The notes below the pieces were generated by a model. It was given only the letters and a program-made list of their open reading frames with translations. It ran no database searches and was not told the origin of the DNA. The position numbers were made by a program, and so were the translations under genes. A stretch of DNA of 64,000 nt. Origin: Escherichia coli (GTDB taxonomy: Bacteria > Pseudomonadota > Gammaproteobacteria > Enterobacterales > Enterobacteriaceae). The stretch lies in assembly GCF_003018235.1 (NCBI RefSeq), contig NZ_CP027437.1. One strand, given 5' to 3'. Below are positions 19,447-58,058 of the stretch, one piece after another. Each line of letters opens with the position of its first letter. Within the stretch, counting starts at the first letter, position 1.

Positions 19447-20517
19447 ATGCAAAAAGACGCGCTGAATAACGTACATATTACCGACGAACAGGTTTTAATG
19501 ACTCCGGAACAACTGAAGGCCGCTTTTCCATTGAGCCTGCAACAAGAAGCCCAGATTGCTGACTCGCGTAAAACCATTTCAGATATTATCGCCGGGCGCG
19601 ATCCTCGTCTGTTGGTAGTATGTGGTCCTTGTTCCATTCATGATCCGGAAACTGCTCTGGAATATGCTCGTCGATTTAAAGCCCTTGCCGCAGAGGTCAG
19701 CGATAGCCTCTATCTGGTAATGCGCGTCTATTTTGAAAAACCCCGTACCACTGTCGGCTGGAAAGGGTTAATTAACGATCCCCATATGGATGGCTCTTTT
19801 GATGTAGAAGCCGGGCTGCAGATCGCGCGTAAATTGCTGCTTGAGCTGGTGAATATGGGACTGCCACTGGCGACGGAAGCGTTAGATCCGAATAGCCCGC
19901 AATACCTGGGCGATCTGTTTAGCTGGTCAGCCATTGGTGCTCGTACAACGGAATCGCAAACTCACCGTGAAATGGCCTCCGGGCTTTCCATGCCGGTTGG
20001 TTTTAAAAACGGCACCGACGGCAGTCTGGCAACAGCAATTAACGCTATGCGCGCCGCCGCCCAGCCGCACCGTTTTGTTGGCATTAACCAGGCAGGGCAG
20101 GTGGCGTTGCTACAAACTCAGGGGAATCCGGATGGGCATGTGATCCTGCGCGGTGGTAAAGCGCCGAACTATAGCCCTGCGGATGTTGCGCAATGTGAAA
20201 AAGAGATGGAACAGGCGGGACTGCGCCCGTCTCTGATGGTAGATTGCAGCCACGGTAATTCCAATAAAGATTATCGCCGTCAGCCTGCGGTGGCAGAATC
20301 CGTGGTTGCTCAAATCAAAGATGGCAATCGCTCAATTATTGGTCTGATGATCGAAAGTAATATCCACGAGGGCAATCAGTCTTCCGAGCAACCGCGCAGT
20401 GAAATGAAATACGGTGTATCCGTAACCGATGCCTGCATTAGTTGGGAAATGACCGATGCCTTGCTGCGTGAAATTCATCAGGATCTGAACGGGCAGCTGA
20501 CGGCTCGCGTGGCTTAA
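19447..20517 (+). CDS. aroF: DAHP synthase, Tyr-sensitive
   Basis: 356 aa from [25 protein letters not shown]... Confidence 0.95.
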
Positions 20518-20527
20518 GAGGTTTATT

Positions 20528-21649
20528 ATGGTTGCTGAATTGACCGCATTACGCGATCAAATTGATGAAGTCGATAAAGCGCTGCTGAATTTATTAGCGA
20601 AGCGTCTGGAACTGGTTGCTGAAGTGGGAGAGGTGAAAAGCCGCTTTGGACTGCCTATTTATGTTCCGGAGCGAGAGGCATCTATGCTGGCCTCGCGTCG
20701 TGCAGAGGCGGAAGCTCTGGGTGTACCGCCAGATCTGATTGAGGATGTTTTGCGTCGGGTGATGCGTGAATCTTACTCCAGTGAAAACGACAAAGGATTT
20801 AAAACGCTTTGTCCGTCACTGCGTCCGGTGGTTATCGTCGGTGGTGGCGGTCAGATGGGACGTCTGTTCGAGAAGATGCTGGCACTCTCGGGTTATCAGG
20901 TGCGGATTCTGGAGCAACATGACTGGGATCGAGCGGCTGATATTGTTGCCGATGCCGGAATGGTGATTGTTAGTGTGCCCATCCACGTTACTGAACAAGT
21001 TATTGGCAAATTACCGCCTTTACCGAAAGATTGTATTCTGGTTGATCTGGCATCGGTGAAAAATGGACCATTACAGGCCATGCTGGCGGCGCATGATGGT
21101 CCGGTGCTGGGGTTACACCCGATGTTCGGCCCGGACAGCGGTAGCCTGGCAAAGCAAGTTGTGGTCTGGTGTGATGGACGTAAGCCGGAAGCATACCAAT
21201 GGTTTCTGGAGCAAATTCAGGTCTGGGGCGCTCGGCTGCATCGTATTAGCGCCGTCGAGCACGATCAGAATATGGCGTTTATTCAGGCTCTGCGCCACTT
21301 TGCTACTTTTGCTTATGGGCTGCACCTGGCAGAAGAAAATGTTCAGCTTGAGCAACTTCTGGCACTTTCTTCGCCGATTTACCGCCTTGAGCTGGCGATG
21401 GTCGGGCGACTGTTTGCTCAGGATCCGCAGCTTTATGCCGACATCATTATGTCGTCAGAGCGTAATCTGGCGTTGATCAAACGTTATTATAAGCGTTTCG
21501 GCGAGGCGATTGAGTTGCTGGAGCAGGGCGATAAGCAGGCGTTTATTGACAGTTTCCGCAAGGTGGAGCACTGGTTCGGCGATTACGCACAGCGTTTTCA
21601 GAGTGAAAGCCGCGTGTTATTGCGTCAGGCGAATGACAGTCGCCAGTAA
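20528..21649 (+). CDS. tyrA: Chorismate mutase / prephenate dehydrogenase (T-protein)
   Basis: 373 aa [34 protein letters not shown]... Confidence 0.95.
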
Positions 21650-48776: not shown

Positions 48777-50278
48777 TGGCGATTAGTGATGATGTGATTG
48801 GTTTTTTCTCGCCCGGCTGGAAAGCGGCGCGATTACGCTCAAGGGCGTTAATTATGGCCTATGAGGCCGTGAAACCCACCCGCACGCACAAAGCCCGGCG
48901 GGAAAACCGTTCTGCCGATCAGCTCAGTAAATACGGTGCGGTTTCCCTGCGCGAGCAGGCCCGCTTTCTGGATATCAATCATGACCTGGTGATAGGCGTG
49001 TTTGACAAGCTGGAGGAGCGGGTGATTGGCGCCAGGGGGATCACCGTTGAACCTCATCCGGTGCTGAAAAACGGGAAGATTGCGGCGGAGCTGGCAGCGG
49101 ATATCCGGCGGCTGTGGGCGGAATGGTCTGTCAGTCCGGATGTGACCGGACAGTACACCCGTCCCATGCTTGAACGTCTGCTGCTGCGCACCTGGCTGCG
49201 GGACGGGGAAGTGTTTGCGCAGATGGTCAGTGGTGCGGCAGGCGGTCTTAAGCGGTCTGCCGGTGTGCCTTTCTGGCTTGAGGCGATGGAGCCGGATTTT
49301 GTGCCCATGCGCAGTGATGAATCTGCCGGACTGAATCAGGGCGTTTTTCTGGATGAGTGGGGCAGGCCGAAAAAATATCTGGTTTACAAAAATTATCCGG
49401 TTTCCGGGATACAGAGTGATACCAAAGAGATCGCCGCAGACAATATGGTGCACCTGAAGTTCACCCGTCGCCTGCACCAGACGCGTGGCACATCCATGCT
49501 GTCAGGGGTGCTGATGCGGATCAGTGCGCTTAAGGAATATGAAGACGCCGAGCTGACTTCGGCACGTGTTGCGGCGGCGCTGGGGCTGTATATCCGTAAA
49601 GGGGACGGACAGGACTATGAAGATCCGGGGGTGAAAGACAACGAACGTGAAGTGCATATCACCCCGGGCATTATCTATGACGATTTGCGCAAGGGTGAGG
49701 ATATCGGCATGGTCAAATCAGACCGTCCGAATCCCAATCTTGAGAATTTTCGTAACGGCCAGCTGCGTGCGGTGGCGGCAGGCAGTCGTCTGAGCTTTTC
49801 CAGTGCGGCGCGCAACTACAACGGCACCTACAGTGCCCAGCGGCAGGAGCTGGTGGAGTCCACCGATGGTTATTTTATCCTTCAGGACTGCTTTATTGGC
49901 GCGGTAACCCGTCCGGTATACCGGGCATGGCTGAATATGGCGGTTGCGGCAGGTCTGCTGAAAATCCCGACTGGCCTGGATATGAAGACGTTATATAACG
50001 CGACGTATTCCGGTCCGGTGATGCCGTGGATTGACCCGGTTAAGGAAGCTGAAGCCTGGCGGATACAGATCAGGGGTGGTGCCGCGACGGAATCCGACTG
50101 GATCCGCGCAAGCGGGCGCAACCCGGATGAGGTCAAACGTCGCCGTAAGGCTGAAACTGATGAAAACCGCAGGCTGGGGCTGGTCTTTGATACTGACCCC
50201 GTCAACGACAAAGGAGGCAACAGTGCCGGAACTGAACAACAGCGTCAGCAGGCCACCGACAGCCAGCATGAAGAATAA
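48776..50278 (+). CDS. B: Portal protein (lambda B family)
   Basis: 500 aa; position between W and the protease/capsid gene. Confidence 0.85.
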   Translation: MAISDDVIGFFSPGWKAARLRSRALIMAYEAVKPTRTHKARRENRSADQLSKYGAVSLREQARFLDINHDLVIGVFDKLEERVIGARGITVEPHPVLKNGKIAAELAADIRRLWAEWSVSPDVTGQYTRPMLERLLLRTWLRDGEVFAQMVSGAAGGLKRSAGVPFWLEAMEPDFVPMRSDESAGLNQGVFLDEWGRPKKYLVYKNYPVSGIQSDTKEIAADNMVHLKFTRRLHQTRGTSMLSGVLMRISALKEYEDAELTSARVAAALGLYIRKGDGQDYEDPGVKDNEREVHITPGIIYDDLRKGEDIGMVKSDRPNPNLENFRNGQLRAVAAGSRLSFSSAARNYNGTYSAQRQELVESTDGYFILQDCFIGAVTRPVYRAWLNMAVAAGLLKIPTGLDMKTLYNATYSGPVMPWIDPVKEAEAWRIQIRGGAATESDWIRASGRNPDEVKRRRKAETDENRRLGLVFDTDPVNDKGGNSAGTEQQRQQATDSQHEE

Positions 50279-52238
50279 ATCCTGGTTCAGGATGCAGGCG
50301 GGTGGTCAGGGTGAGGCGGATATTTATATTTATGACGAGATTGGTTTCTGGGGGGTTACGGCGAAGCAGTTTATCAGTGATCTGAATGCGCTTGGCGACA
50401 TCACCCACATTAATCTCCATATCAATTCACCGGGTGGCGAGGTCTTTGAAGGCATCGCCATTTTTAATACCCTCAGAAATCACGGTGCAGGCATTACCGT
50501 GTATGTGGACGGGGTTGCCGCGTCGATGGCATCCCTGATTGCGATGGCCGGTGACACGGTCATTATGCCGGAAAATGCCTTCATGATGATCCATAAGCCC
50601 TGGGGGATCAGCGGTGGTGACGCGGAGAAAATGCGCACTTATGCCGATCGCCTCGACAAACTTGAGTCGGTTATGGTGCCGGTATATGCGCAGAAAACCG
50701 GGAAAACCACCGATGAAATTGCTGCCATGCTGGCGGATGAGACCTGGATGTCCGGTGCGGAATGTCTGGCACACGGATTTGCAGACCAGGTGACGCCAGC
50801 CGTTAAGGCAATGGCATGTATTCAGTCAAAACGTACAGAGGAATTTAAAAAGATGCCGGAATCCATCAGAAATATGATCACACAACCGTCTGACCGTACC
50901 CCGCGTGAGGCGACCACCACACAGGCAGTCACAGAACCCGCCCCGGCACCGGCAGCGCCAGATGAGGAGACCATCCGGGCCAGTGTACTGGCGGAGCAGA
51001 AGGCCCGTATGTCAGGCATTAACGATCTGTTTGCCATGTTTGGTGGTCGTTATCAGGCACTTCATGCGCAGTGTGTGGCCGATCCCGGCTGCTCGCTGGA
51101 GATGGCCCGAGAGCGTCTGCTGAATGAAATGGGTAAGGAGTCCTCGCCGACTAACAAAACCACACCGGCACATATTTATGCCGGAAACGGTAATTTTGTG
51201 GGTGACGGGATCCGTCAGGCGCTGATGGCCCGCGCCGGATTTGAGACTACGGAGAAGGATAATGCCTATAACGGGATGACCCTGCGTGAATGCGCCCGCA
51301 TGTCACTGACGGAGCGGGGGATCGGGGTGGCCAGTTACAACCCCATGCAGATGGTGGGGCTGGCGCTGACGCACAGCACCTCGGATTTTGGCAATATCCT
51401 GCTGGATGTGTCGAATAAGGGACTGATTCAGGGCTGGGAGGAATCAGAGGAAACCTTCCAGAAATGGACCCGCAAAGGTCGCCTGTCTGACTTCAAAACG
51501 GCATACCGTGTGGGGATGGGGGGCTTTGGTTCACTGCGTCAGGTGCGCGAAGGGGCAGAGTACAAGTACATCACCACCTCAGACCGCAGGGAAACCATCG
51601 CGCTGGCGACCTACGGGGAAATTTTCTCCATCACCCGTCAGGCCATTATCAATGATGACCTGAATATGCTGGTGGATGTCCCGATGAAGATGGGGCGTGC
51701 CGCGAAGGCAACGATTGGTGACCTGGTGTATGACGTGCTGACAAAAAATCCGAAACTGTCAGACGGCAAGGCGCTGTTCCATGCCGATCACCAGAATATT
51801 GCCACCGGCGGGATCTCCGTTTCCGGTCTGGATGCGGCACGTCAGATGATGCGTCTGCAGAAGGAGGGGAATCGTGCACTGAATATCCGTCCGGCCTTCA
51901 TGCTGGTACCGGTGGCGCTGGAGACGGTGGCAAACCAGACCATCAAATCGGCCAGTGTGAAAGGGGCGGATGCGAATGCCGGTGTCATTAACCCGATTCA
52001 GAACTTTGCCGAAGTGATTGCGGAAGCGCGTCTTGATGCGGCAGATCCGAAAACCTGGTATCTGGCGGCGGCACAGGGGACCGATACGATAGAAGTGGCC
52101 TGGCTGGATGGTGTGGACACGCCGTATATTGATCAGCAGGAAGGCTTCACCACTGACGGTATCGCCACAAAAATCCGTATTGATGCCGGTGTGGCACCGC
52201 TTGACTGGCGCGGACTGGTACGATCATCTGCTGCCTGA
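50268..52238 (+). CDS. Prohead protease (ClpP/S14-like) fused to major capsid protein
   Basis: N-terminal INSPGGEVFEGIAIFNTLR...MASLIAMAGD ClpP-like; ~400-aa C-terminal capsid domain; start at internal ATG 50268 overlapping portal stop. Confidence 0.8.
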   Translation: MKNKSWFRMQAGGQGEADIYIYDEIGFWGVTAKQFISDLNALGDITHINLHINSPGGEVFEGIAIFNTLRNHGAGITVYVDGVAASMASLIAMAGDTVIMPENAFMMIHKPWGISGGDAEKMRTYADRLDKLESVMVPVYAQKTGKTTDEIAAMLADETWMSGAECLAHGFADQVTPAVKAMACIQSKRTEEFKKMPESIRNMITQPSDRTPREATTTQAVTEPAPAPAAPDEETIRASVLAEQKARMSGINDLFAMFGGRYQALHAQCVADPGCSLEMARERLLNEMGKESSPTNKTTPAHIYAGNGNFVGDGIRQALMARAGFETTEKDNAYNGMTLRECARMSLTERGIGVASYNPMQMVGLALTHSTSDFGNILLDVSNKGLIQGWEESEETFQKWTRKGRLSDFKTAYRVGMGGFGSLRQVREGAEYKYITTSDRRETIALATYGEIFSITRQAIINDDLNMLVDVPMKMGRAAKATIGDLVYDVLTKNPKLSDGKALFHADHQNIATGGISVSGLDAARQMMRLQKEGNRALNIRPAFMLVPVALETVANQTIKSASVKGADANAGVINPIQNFAEVIAEARLDAADPKTWYLAAAQGTDTIEVAWLDGVDTPYIDQQEGFTTDGIATKIRIDAGVAPLDWRGLVRSSAA

Positions 52239-53969: not shown

Positions 53970-54728
53970 ATGTCAACACCTAATCCTCTTGAGCCGGTAA
54001 AAGGCTCCGGCACCACACTCTGGCTTTATTCCGGAAATGGTGATGCTTATGCAAATCCACTGTCTGATGATGACTGGACGCGACTGGCAAAAATCAAGGA
54101 ACTGACGCCGGGCGATATGACGGCAGAATCCTATGACGATAACTACCTGGATGATGAGGATGCCGACTGGGTTTCCACCGGGCAGGGACAGAAATCGGCG
54201 GGTGATACCAGTTTCACCCTGGCCTGGAAGCCCGGTGAGGCAGGCCAGCAGGCGCTGTTGCGGTGGTTTGATGAGGGCGATACCCGTGCCTATAAAATCC
54301 GTTTTCCCAATGGCACGGTCGATGTGTTCCGTGGCTGGGTGAGCAGTATTGGCAAGGCCGTCACCGCAAAAGAAGTGATCACCCGTACGATAAAAGTCAC
54401 CAATATTGGTCGTCCGTCGCTGGCGGAAGACAGCGGAACCATCACGCCGGTGACGGGGATCACCGTCACACCGGCCACGGCTTCTGTTGAGGCGGGGAAA
54501 ACGGTGGAACTGACGGTGGCCGTTCAGCCGGATACGGCATCGGACAAAACCTTCCGGGTGTCATCTGACCACAACAATGTGGCGACGGTGACCGTGAAGG
54601 ATAACGTCATCACGGTGAAAGGGGTGGCAAAAGGTACCGCGCTTATCCCGGTCATGAGTAATGGTGGCGCTTTCGCTGCCGTGGCCACCGTAACGGTCAC
54701 AACACCTGCAGCACAGCCTGCCACTTAA
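53970..54728 (+). CDS. V: Major tail protein gpV with C-terminal Ig-like domain
   Basis: Near-identical stretches to lambda V ([59 protein letters not shown]). Confidence 0.9.
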
Positions 54729-54746
54729 TTTTCCGGGAGTGAATTC

Positions 54747-55163
54747 ATGTTTCTGAAAACGGAACCGTTTGAATATAACGGGCAGACTGTCACGCTCAGC
54801 GAACTGTCCGCCCTGCAGCGCCTCGAGTATCTGGCCTGGGTGAAGGAGAAGGAAGAACAGCGGGGGGAGGGTGTCAGTGAACAGCAGGCGCTCACTGACA
54901 TCATCAGCGAAGGTGCCCTGCTGGTGGCCATGTCGCTCTGGCATCACCATGAGCTGAACGGAGCGTCATCCTCACTGCGTGAAGAGACGGACAGGCTCAT
55001 GCAGGAAGTCCTGACCTCCTGGCCGGTGGAAGCCATCGCCGCAGGCCGGAACGTGGTGGCACGTCTGAGTGGTATGTCGGCTCCGGCAGGTGAAAAATCC
55101 CCCGCTCAGGGGGGTAAAACAGACGAACCGGTAACGGCAAAAAAGCGTACGAAGGGGAGCTGA
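54747..55163 (+). CDS. G: Tail assembly chaperone gpG
   Basis: MFLKTEPFEYNGQTVTLSELSALQRLEYLA... like lambda G. Confidence 0.85.
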   Translation: MFLKTEPFEYNGQTVTLSELSALQRLEYLAWVKEKEEQRGEGVSEQQALTDIISEGALLVAMSLWHHHELNGASSSLREETDRLMQEVLTSWPVEAIAAGRNVVARLSGMSAPAGEKSPAQGGKTDEPVTAKKRTKGS

Positions 55164-55471
55164 TTTTTGCCCTGCAACTGGCGCGCGAGATGGGCCGTCC
55201 TGACTGGCGTGCCATGCTGGCCGGGATGTCATCAACCGAGTATTCCGACTGGCGTCATTTTTACCGCACGCATTATTTTCAGGATGCACAACTGGATATG
55301 CATTTTGCCGGGCTGACGTATGCCGTACTCAGCCTGTTTTTTGCCGATCCTGATATGAGTCCGTCTGATTTCAGCCTGCTGAACCGGCGTGGTGCTGAAG
55401 AAGAGCCTGAAGATGATGTGCTGATGTCGGTATCAGAAGGTATAGCAGGAGGTGTCCGCTATGGCGGGTAA
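54747..55471 (+). CDS. T: Tail assembly chaperone gpG-T fusion via programmed -1 ribosomal frameshift at A_AAA_AAG (55139-55145)
   Basis: Slippery heptamer in G frame near G 3' end; T reading frame (frame 2) open from the site to 55471. Confidence 0.75.
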
Positions 55472-58058
55472 CTTTGCAGATCTGACAGCAATTCTGACCC
55501 TGGATTCCACCCGCTTTTCTGAAGAAATGGGGCGGGTGAAAAAAGAGCTTGGCGAAACCAGCTCACTGGCAGACACGATGTCAGGCAAGGTCAGCCAGTC
55601 CCTGAATAAATCCGCAGAGGCCATTGAGCAGAGTCTGAGCCGTCAGGCGCTGGCCGCACAGAAAGCGGGGATTTCCGTCGGGCAGTATAAAGCCGCCATG
55701 CGTATGCTGCCTGCACAGTTCACGGATGTCGCCACGCAGCTTGCAGGCGGGCAAAGTCCGTGGCTGATCATGCTGCAACAGGGGGGCCAGGTGAAGGACT
55801 CCTTTGGCGGGATAATCCCTATGTTCAGGAGCCTTGCCGGTGCTGTCACCCTGCCGATGGCCGGGCTCACCTCGCTGGCGGTGGCGACAGGTGCGCTGGT
55901 GTATGCCTGGTACAAGGGTGATACCGTCCTGTCTGAATTTAATAAAACGCTGGTTCTTTCCGGTAATCAGTCGGGACTGACGGCAGATCGTATGTTGTCC
56001 CTGACCAGAGCCGGGCAGGCGGCAGGGCTGACGTTTAACCAGACCAGTGAGGCACTGACGGCGCTGGTGAATGCCGGTGTGCGTGGTGGTGAGCAGTTTG
56101 AAGCCATCAGCCAGAGTGTGGCACGTTTCTCCGCCGCATCGGGTGTGGAGGTGGACAAGGTTGCTGAAGCCTTCGGGAAGCTGACCACCGACCCGACGTC
56201 GGGGCTGACGGCGATGGCGCACCAGTTCCATAACGTGACGGCGGAGCAGATTGCGTATGTTGCTCAGTTGCAGCGTTCCGGCGATGAAGCCGGGGCATTG
56301 CAGGCGGCGAACGAGGCCGCAACGAAAGGGTTTGATGACCAGACCCGCCGCCTGAAAGAAAACATGGGGACACTGGAGACCTGGGCAGACAGGACAGCAC
56401 GGGCATTCAAATCCATGTGGGATGCGGTGCTGGATATTGGTCGTCCTGATACCGCGCAGGAGATGCTGATTAAGGCAGAGGCCGCGTTTAAGAAAGCGGA
56501 CGATATCTGGAATCTGCGCAAGGATGATTATTTTGTTAACGATGAAGCGCGGGCGCGTTACTGGGATGATCGTGAAAAGGCCCGTCTTGCGCTTGAAGCC
56601 GCCAGAAAGAAGGCAGAACAGCAGAGTCAACAGGACAAAAATGCGCAGCAGCAGAGCGATACCGAAGCGTCACGGCTGAAATATACCGAAGAGGCGCAGA
56701 AGGCTTACGAACGGCTGCAGACGCCGCTGGAAAAATACACCGCCCGTCAGGAGGAGCTGAATAAAGCCCTGAAGGCCGGGAAAATCCTGCAGGCGGACTA
56801 CAACACGCTGATGGCGGCGGCGAAAAAGGACTATGAGTCGACGCTGAAAAAGCCGAAACAGTCAGGCGTGAAAGTGTCAGCAGGCGATCGTCAGGAGGAC
56901 AACACCCGTACAGCGCTGCTGGCGCTGCAGACTGAGCTGCGGACACTTCAGGCCCACGCCGGGGCGAATGAAAAAATCAGCCAGCAGCGTCGGGAACTGT
57001 GGAAGGCGGAAAGTCAGTATGCGGTACTGGCGGAGGCGGCACAACGTCGCCAGTTATCCGCACAGGAGAAATCCCTGCTGGCGCATAAAGACGAGACGCT
57101 GGAGTACAGACGCCAGCTGGCTGACCTGGGCGACAAGGTTGAATACCAGAAACGGCTGAACGAGCTGGCAGACCAGGCGGAGAAATTTGCACAGCAGCAG
57201 CGGGCAAAACAGGCTGCCATCAGTGCAAAAGGCAGGGGGCTGACTGACAGGCAGGCGCAGCGGGAGTCAGAAGAGCAGCGGTTGCGCGAGGTGTATGGTG
57301 ATAATCCGCAGGCGCTGGTGAAGGCAACAGGTGCGCTGAAACAGACATGGGCTTCGGAAGACCAGCTGAATGGCAGCTGGATGGCCGGGCTTCAGTCGGG
57401 CTGGAGCCAGTGGGCTGAGAGTGCGATGGACAGTTTTTCGCAGGTGAAAAGTGTGTCCATGCAGACCTTTGACGGGATTGCGCAGAATATGGCAGCAATG
57501 CTGACCGGCAGTGAACAGAACTGGCGCAGCTTCACCCGTTCGGTGTTGTCGATGCTGACAGAAATTCTGCTGAAGCAGGCCATGGCCGGAATGGTCGGAA
57601 GTGCGATCAGTGCCATTGGCAGCGCTTTCGGCGGTGGTGCGTCGGCTTCAGCCGGTACGGCCATTCAGGCTGCGGCGGCGAACTTCCATTTTGCGACCGG
57701 AGGATTTACGGGCACGGGTGGCAAATATGAGCCTGCGGGGATTGTTCACCGCGGGGAGTTTGTCTTCACGAAGGAGGCAACCAGCCGGATTGGTGTCGGT
57801 AACCTGTACCGCCTGATGCGGGGCTATGCGGAAGGTGGTTATGTGGGCGGTGCCGGAAGTCCGGCGCAGATGCGGCGGGCGGAAGGTATCCGGTTTGAGC
57901 AGAACAACAGCGTGGTGATTCAGAACGACGGTACCAACGGGCAGGCGGGACCGCAACTGATGAAGGCGGTGTATGACATGGCCCGCAAAGGGGCGCAGGA
58001 TGAGATTCAGGCGCAGATGCGTGATGGCGGCGTATTTTCCGGAGGAGGTGGACGATGA
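55461..58058 (+). CDS. H: Tail tape measure protein gpH
   Basis: AGGAGGTG SD; long stretches matching lambda H (LSRQALAAQKAGISVGQYKAAMRMLPAQFTDVATQLAGGQSPWLI). Confidence 0.9.
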   Translation: MAGNFADLTAILTLDSTRFSEEMGRVKKELGETSSLADTMSGKVSQSLNKSAEAIEQSLSRQALAAQKAGISVGQYKAAMRMLPAQFTDVATQLAGGQSPWLIMLQQGGQVKDSFGGIIPMFRSLAGAVTLPMAGLTSLAVATGALVYAWYKGDTVLSEFNKTLVLSGNQSGLTADRMLSLTRAGQAAGLTFNQTSEALTALVNAGVRGGEQFEAISQSVARFSAASGVEVDKVAEAFGKLTTDPTSGLTAMAHQFHNVTAEQIAYVAQLQRSGDEAGALQAANEAATKGFDDQTRRLKENMGTLETWADRTARAFKSMWDAVLDIGRPDTAQEMLIKAEAAFKKADDIWNLRKDDYFVNDEARARYWDDREKARLALEAARKKAEQQSQQDKNAQQQSDTEASRLKYTEEAQKAYERLQTPLEKYTARQEELNKALKAGKILQADYNTLMAAAKKDYESTLKKPKQSGVKVSAGDRQEDNTRTALLALQTELRTLQAHAGANEKISQQRRELWKAESQYAVLAEAAQRRQLSAQEKSLLAHKDETLEYRRQLADLGDKVEYQKRLNELADQAEKFAQQQRAKQAAISAKGRGLTDRQAQRESEEQRLREVYGDNPQALVKATGALKQTWASEDQLNGSWMAGLQSGWSQWAESAMDSFSQVKSVSMQTFDGIAQNMAAMLTGSEQNWRSFTRSVLSMLTEILLKQAMAGMVGSAISAIGSAFGGGASASAGTAIQAAAANFHFATGGFTGTGGKYEPAGIVHRGEFVFTKEATSRIGVGNLYRLMRGYAEGGYVGGAGSPAQMRRAEGIRFEQNNSVVIQNDGTNGQAGPQLMKAVYDMARKGAQDEIQAQMRDGGVFSGGGGR

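Follow-up and report, generated by a model that had tools for sequence, protein, structure and literature searches.

A predicted lambda-type G-T frameshift site with the heptamer A_AAA_AAG in an Escherichia coli prophage

Results

Genes G and T overlap between the major tail protein and tape measure genes

The window, a 64,000-nucleotide stretch of the Escherichia coli contig NZ_CP027437.1 (assembly GCF_003018235.1), carries a lambda-like prophage whose tail genes follow the order V-G-T-H, with two overlapping open reading frames (ORFs) between the major tail protein and tape measure genes. The features at the site are listed here.

53970 to 54728, plus strand: major tail protein (lambda V-like), directly upstream of G (phrog_41, E 1.2e-116; RefSeq "phage tail protein")
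54747 to 55163, plus strand: gene G, tail assembly chaperone, the zero-frame product of 138 aa and 15.1 kDa (TIGR01674, phrog_42; RefSeq gpG)
55118 to 55471, plus strand: open stretch in the −1 frame encoding T (TIGR01715)
55139 to 55145, plus strand: slippery heptamer A_AAA_AAG, in which X is the wobble base of Ala131 (GCA), followed by Lys132 (AAA) and Lys133 (AAG)
55461 to 58058, plus strand: tape measure gene (lambda H-like; phrog_24 tail length tape measure protein, 1108 bits; RefSeq CDS)

Gene G has a GGGAG Shine-Dalgarno (SD) sequence upstream, and its product belongs to the NCBIfam equivalog TIGR01674 phage_lambda_G (133.5 bits against a cut-off of 74.45). The −1 frame matches the equivalog TIGR01715 phage_lam_T (162.2 bits against a cut-off of 77.35) over positions 1 to 108 of the 111 in that profile. 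This match begins at residue 14 of the open frame, and the first ATG is residue 25, that is, 11 residues later. The tape measure gene has its SD sequence and ATG within the last codons of T. All tail genes around G-T are intact ORFs, and the G-T stretch is identical to that of a prophage in E. coli O158:H23 strain CFIAFB20140388.

In RefSeq, no slippage is annotated at this G-T pair, and T is labeled a pseudogene. Two minus-strand ORFs that run across the site (54972 to 55289 and 54997 to 55215) had no support and were treated as spurious. In the head region, positions 50031 to 52238 hold a 735-aa ORF that fuses a ClpP-like prohead protease to a major capsid protein (the CDS in RefSeq is a little shorter); the head module of the prophage is thus not of lambda type, although the tail module is.

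The heptamer lies in slip phase within gene G

Positions 55139 to 55145 on the plus strand read AAAAAAG. The codons of gene G at this point are GCA (55137), AAA (55140), and AAG (55143), so that the heptamer is phased A_AAA_AAG, and its 3′ neighbor is a C. Fifteen nucleotides separate the end of the heptamer from the G stop codon, TGA 55161-55163. The −1 frame has no stop from 55118 (it is preceded by TAA 55115-55117) until TAA 55469-55471. The initial annotation of this DNA had placed the heptamer A AAA AAG within G, with the T frame open from there to 55471, and both statements hold, the heptamer being in slip phase and the open stretch spanning 55118 to 55471.

The same annotation had found no plausible start for T with an SD sequence. 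Indeed, the first start codon in the −1 frame is ATG 55190 ('gcgcgcgagATG'), before which there is no spaced SD sequence (the preceding bases are 'gcgcgcgag'), and homology to T begins 11 residues earlier. The T-frame peptide AYEGELIFALQLAR lies upstream of this first ATG and is therefore diagnostic for read-through from G.

After a −1 slip, reading would resume at GCG 55145 and take in 108 codons before TAA 55469-55471. The conceptual GT protein, G residues 1 to 133 followed by these 108 aa, would be 241 aa long (26.8 kDa). It aligned without a break to phrog_32165, whose members are annotated as GT fusions, with residues 1 to 241 matched to positions 1 to 250 of the 290 in the profile (327.9 bits, E 1e-97). 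The proposal that G and T are joined by a tail-chaperone programmed −1 frameshift is thus supported by lambda G/T orthology, the homologous position of the heptamer, and the continuous GT match, all of them read from sequence.

AAAAAAG is frequent in the window but rarely so placed

Across both strands of the window, AAAAAAG occurs 29 times, where dinucleotide shuffling leads one to expect 12.1 copies; all 100 shuffled versions had fewer than 29. AT-rich segments in other parts of the window are the probable cause of this excess. Within the overlap of the 0 and −1 frames (55118 to 55160), which offers 13 in-phase positions, about 0.003 AAAAAAG would be expected at the window's own frequency, by an arithmetic estimate. 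Among the AAAAAAG copies within stop-to-stop ORFs of at least 100 codons, the one at 55139 is the only copy that combines slip phase, a zero-frame remainder of 8 codons, and a −1 extension of 110 codons. A second AAAAAAG, at 55539 to 55545, lies 78 nt inside the tape measure gene in the phase AAA_AAA_G, which is not slip-prone.

Only two heptamers occur at the G-T site among relatives

We searched IMG/VR with T peptide motifs only, a search blind to the heptamer, and confirmed 440 relatives, of which the best 80 were examined. Among 84 sites (those best 80 of 440, together with lambda, the window, and three E. coli loci), 76 had GGGAAAG and 8 had AAAAAAG, and there was no other heptamer. An arbitrary sample of 120 contigs, drawn by downstream context, yielded 93 with GGGAAAG, 18 with AAAAAAG, and 9 unrelated sequences. 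After dereplication, 128 unique G-T sequences remained: 109 carried GGGAAAG, 19 carried AAAAAAG, and none carried anything else. A complete scan found the AAAAAAG form in 74 IMG/VR contigs.

None of the six purine intermediates (GGA, GAA, AGG, AAG, GAG, or AGA followed by AAAG) was found at a G-T site with the conserved downstream context in scans of IMG/VR, a database with about 440 T relatives. Nine matches to the context pattern with a triplet other than GGG or AAA proved to be in unrelated genes and not at G-T, as did a single GRAAAAG match and three GAGAAAG matches.

The wobble base before the slip codons is A in every AAAAAAG locus, though the codon itself specifies Ala, Val, or Ser, and is G (GCG) in every GGGAAAG locus. 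Since this base tracks the heptamer across Ala, Val, and Ser codons, selection acts on the nucleotides, for re-pairing in the P site, and not on the amino acids. The 3′ C is present in all 19 unique AAAAAAG loci.

The AAAAAAG form spans two lineages of G whose N-terminal regions are about 50% different. The G-T type of the window is rare, being present in 7 of 5426 complete E. coli genomes at a coverage of at least 80%. The type found in VT1-Sakai is present in 643 of the 5426 and also in Stx phages, including VT1-Sakai itself (Stx1). AAAAAAG is a common, long-sequenced allele of the lambda-type G-T site.

Candidate stimulatory elements near the heptamer

No SD-like stimulator (GGAG, GAGG, AGGA, GGTG, or similar) is present in the 25 nt upstream of the heptamer, 'GTAAAACAGACGAACCGGTAACGGC'. 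Downstream, one candidate structure lies close to the heptamer.

55153 to 55173, plus strand: weak predicted hairpin (AGGG.AG / UU.CCCU), 7 to 8 nt downstream of the heptamer, minimum free energy −5.5 kcal/mol

This hairpin is weaker than the stem-loop criterion of 7.6 kcal/mol (PMC4066793). Among 41 unique relatives it showed only one-sided changes (G-C/G-U or C-G/U-G) and no double compensatory pairs, and each base in it is under constraint from the conserved T residues GELxFAL. Because it is weak, lacks compensatory changes, and sits in conserved T codons, we rejected it as a demonstrated stimulator. Further on, 33 nt past the heptamer, a stronger hairpin starts (GGCGCGCGAG...CGUGCC); the 70-nt downstream segment that contains it has a z score of −0.89 against shuffles in the window sequence. 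It too was rejected as a stimulator, being beyond the usual spacing of 4 to 10 nt in a segment that folds no better than its shuffles. An Rfam scan of positions 54700 to 55600 (E ≤ 10) detected no frameshift element; its three matches, all at chance level, were to RNA families of eukaryotes and archaea.

Where G encodes its variable C-terminal tail, at 55099 to 55114, the sequence CCCCCGCTCAGGGGGG forms a perfect hairpin of five G-C pairs, 24 nt before the heptamer. Terminator-like on the minus strand, it is shared with SCU-111 but not with lambda or M3 and is probably incidental. The two minus-strand terminator-like matches were within shuffle expectation.

T is shortened by an in-frame deletion

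DNA and protein alignments showed that T of the window has an in-frame deletion of 111 nt (37 codons) relative to its nearest relatives, SCU-111 and M3, and to lambda. The alignments also located a microhomology at the junction.

55419 to 55426, plus strand: 8-nt microhomology TGCTGATG at the deletion junction in T

The missing segment lies between two repeat copies, ..DDVLM-QKAAGLAGGVRFG.. and ..DDxMLM-[ST]VSEGIAGGVRYG, the second of which holds the start signals of the tape measure gene, its SD sequence and ATG. In T, the C-terminal repeat G[IL]AGGVR[YF]G includes the SD sequence and ATG of H (GGAGGTGTCCGCTATG) and is found at 55440 to 55463 in the window and at 1000 to 1140 in the lambda sequence (L001). 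Since the repeat contains these start signals, the long forms of T look as if the T/H junction had been duplicated. Forms of T with a single repeat, 110 to 121 residues when counted from the heptamer, occur in several lineages, including VT1-Sakai, and the same short T allele is present in a second prophage (IMG/VR locus L005) whose G differs at 8 positions.

RefSeq gives T of the window as a pseudogene "missing C-terminus", a call that is a consequence of the 37-codon deletion. Judged by its sequence, this call is probably too harsh. A GT protein made from the shorter T might nonetheless be less than fully functional.

Discussion

Very probably, the site is a programmed −1 ribosomal frameshift that makes the GT tail assembly chaperone of a lambda-like prophage. 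Most ribosomes would translate G to its stop codon and produce the 138-aa chaperone. In a small fraction, peptidyl-tRNA-Lys would sit on AAA 55140-55142 and Lys-tRNA on AAG 55143-55145, and both tRNAs would move back by one base and re-pair with AAA/AAA at 55139 to 55144. We infer that slippage occurs at this heptamer, and ribosomes that have slipped would continue in the T frame from GCG 55145 to 55471, giving the 241-aa GT fusion. If the proteins act as in lambda, the tape measure protein would be coated by G and by the G portion of GT, and the T portion would recruit the major tail protein.

The overlap could be read differently if T were made as a product of its own from ATG 55190, the heptamer then being incidental. 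RefSeq (PGAP) does start T at the conserved equivalent of this ATG in SCU-111 and M3, and the Met is invariant in four aligned T sequences. However, no spaced SD sequence precedes 55190, and both position 1 of the TIGR01715 profile and the phrog_32165 match reach upstream of the ATG, the latter extending into G. The heptamer and its preceding wobble base are, moreover, conserved at the nucleotide level in all 128 unique relatives, and the lambda T sequence is expressed as a GT fusion (PMC5009743). We regard independent synthesis of T as extremely unlikely. Just as unlikely is transcriptional slippage, in which RNA polymerase would add one A in the run of six; poly-A runs can realign (PMC3711429), and six consecutive A's are present here, but the documented runs have about 8 or more A's or T's (PMC3711429). 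The majority of orthologous sites read GGGAAAG; with a run of just three A's they could not slip in this way, yet they have the same role, and the phase-specific conservation of X_XXY_YYZ is a requirement of ribosomal re-pairing.

A ribosomal frameshift could still be a relic if the truncated T had left the tail module defective, so that the slip no longer served a function. The RefSeq pseudogene label and the 111-nt deletion relative to the nearest relatives are in keeping with such decay. The deletion, however, is in frame and retains the ribosome-binding site and start codon of H; T still covers nearly all of TIGR01715; and all adjacent tail genes are intact ORFs. The same allele is found in the second prophage, despite the 8 differences in G, and single-repeat T recurs elsewhere, including the VT1-Sakai type carried by 643 of the 5426 complete E. 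coli genomes. We therefore consider a relic site improbable, if somewhat less so than the two preceding explanations, and retain the programmed ribosomal frameshift as our reading.

A further idea concerns the two heptamers themselves. GGGAAAG and AAAAAAG might be two stable states across a fitness valley, with the ratio of GT to G tuned differently to the tRNA thiolation and sulfur state of the host, and not a neutral swap. It stems from the finding that no one- or two-step purine intermediate occurs at IMG/VR G-T sites with conserved downstream context, and we think it unlikely, although not so improbable as a relic site. If it were true, the all-lysine heptamer would put tRNA-Lys(mnm5s2U34) in both the P and A sites, and the response of the GT:G ratio to tRNA thiolation or sulfur would perhaps be steeper than that of lambda, which would amount to a tuning of assembly stoichiometry.

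How often ribosomes would shift can be gauged from published work. E. coli reads both AAA and AAG with a single tRNA-Lys (mnm5s2UUU), the pairing with AAG being weaker (PMC5009743), and X_XXA_AAG sites are slippery because this tRNA pairs better with AAA than with AAG. In E. coli reporters, AAAAAAG gave 0.29% frameshifting with no stimulator, 4.3% with the IS911 stimulators, and 39% with the IS3 pseudoknot, and the corresponding values for GGGAAAG were 0.28%, 3.8%, and 43% (PMC4066793, supplement). The two heptamers are thus functionally near-equivalent in E. coli reporters. The 3′ context can lift such motifs to about 3.7% (PMC4066793), and a 3′ C after A_AAA_AAG is generally more shift-prone than a U (PMC5009743). 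In lambda, GT accounts for about 4% of translations (PMC3296357), and the G:GT ratio of roughly 30:1 is needed for tail assembly (PMC5009743). Among other tail chaperones, Antonov et al. reported 6 to 7% frameshifting for two genes of an HK97-like cluster (PMC3711429). Because the intrinsic efficiencies of the heptamers are equal and the site has no strong stimulators, we expect its efficiency to be low and lambda-like, roughly 1 to 5%.

As a discovery the site carries little weight, since G-T frameshifting is textbook knowledge and the A_AAA_AAG allele occurs widely. It is an ordinary lambda-type G-T frameshift with a common, near-equivalent heptamer allele. Three points are of practical use. 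Automatic annotation of this genome misses the recoding and calls T a pseudogene, and an apparently intact tail module could thereby look defective. The strict choice between two heptamers, together with the wobble base that tracks them, shows cleanly, in natural sequences, how selection acts on the nucleotides of a slippery site. The natural pair of alleles also offers an easy test of how the identity of the P-site tRNA affects G:GT stoichiometry.

Comparison with known frameshift sites

The closest well-studied counterpart is the −1 frameshift of lambda G/GT (Levin, Hendrix & Casjens 1993; Xu, Hendrix & Duda 2004, 2013, 2014; works listed as citations in PMC5009743). Lambda G-T is 72% identical in DNA to the window stretch, and in a four-way DNA alignment the lambda GGGAAAG occupies the same columns as AAAAAAG, base for base. 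G GGA AAG had been given as the lambda heptamer in the initial annotation, correctly so according to this alignment and to Table 1 of PMC3296357. Lambda and the window share the V-G-T-H gene order, the −1 direction, a distance of five codons from the heptamer to TGA, and the A-site codon AAG read by the single tRNA-Lys. They differ in the first three bases of the heptamer (AAA in the window and GGG in lambda), so that the P-site codon is Lys AAA in the one and Gly GGA in the other, and in the 3′ neighbor of the heptamer, which is C in the window and U in lambda. With T shorter by 37 codons, GT of the window has 241 aa, compared with 279 aa in lambda.

The same heptamer is found at the same site ('acatcAAAAAAGcattcgaaggcgagctga') in VT1-Sakai (AP000400) and related Stx1 and Stx2 prophages, which have lambda-family G and T genes. 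The VT1-Sakai genes are annotated as "similar to bacteriophage lambda G/T", and the site reads acatcAAAAAAGcattcg. As in the window, T of VT1-Sakai is the single-repeat short form. The two G proteins, in contrast, differ by about 50% over the N-terminal 118 alignment columns, and the codon before the heptamer is Ser TCA in VT1-Sakai and Ala GCA in the window.

Use of A_AAA_AAG by an E. coli prophage tail chaperone was already known from ECs1801 of the Sakai prophage Sp9, which Sharma et al. (2014) placed in cluster A_AAA_AAG_25, marked "true", alongside G_GGA_AAG_4 (gpG) (PMC4066793). Like G of the window, ECs1801 is a tail chaperone of an E. coli prophage, and its −1 frameshift uses this heptamer. 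We rejected it as a homologue of G, the BLASTP match having an E value of 0.99 over 34 residues; it belongs to a different chaperone family. The ECs1801 heptamer abuts the stop codon (AAAAAAG TAG), whereas that of the window lies 15 nt before the stop. At the ECs_1801/ECs_1802 locus (Sakai Sp9, L205 20002 to 20700), the chaperone gene ends GCC AGA AAA AAG TAG and is followed by a −1 ORF; RefSeq lists ECs_1802 (20472 to 20681), which is part of the latter, as a "minor tail protein" in its own right and marks no slippage.

The identity of the heptamer with that of dnaX, also pointed out in the initial annotation, is borne out, the dnaX sequence being A_AAA_AAG (PMC3711429, PMC4344849). Slippage there involves the same tRNA-Lys (PMC5009743, PMC4344849). 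In dnaX, an upstream SD-like sequence and a downstream stem-loop accompany the heptamer, and the efficiency is about 50% (PMC3711429); the present site has no SD-like sequence within 25 nt upstream and, downstream, only the hairpin of −5.5 kcal/mol. The product of frameshifting is also the shorter one in dnaX (gamma/tau) and would be the longer one here. The site is therefore not a cassette of the dnaX type: the heptamer alone is shared, and a search for the two defining stimulators found neither. By its sequence, it is instead a member of the lambda G/GT frameshift family, every testable defining feature of which is present.
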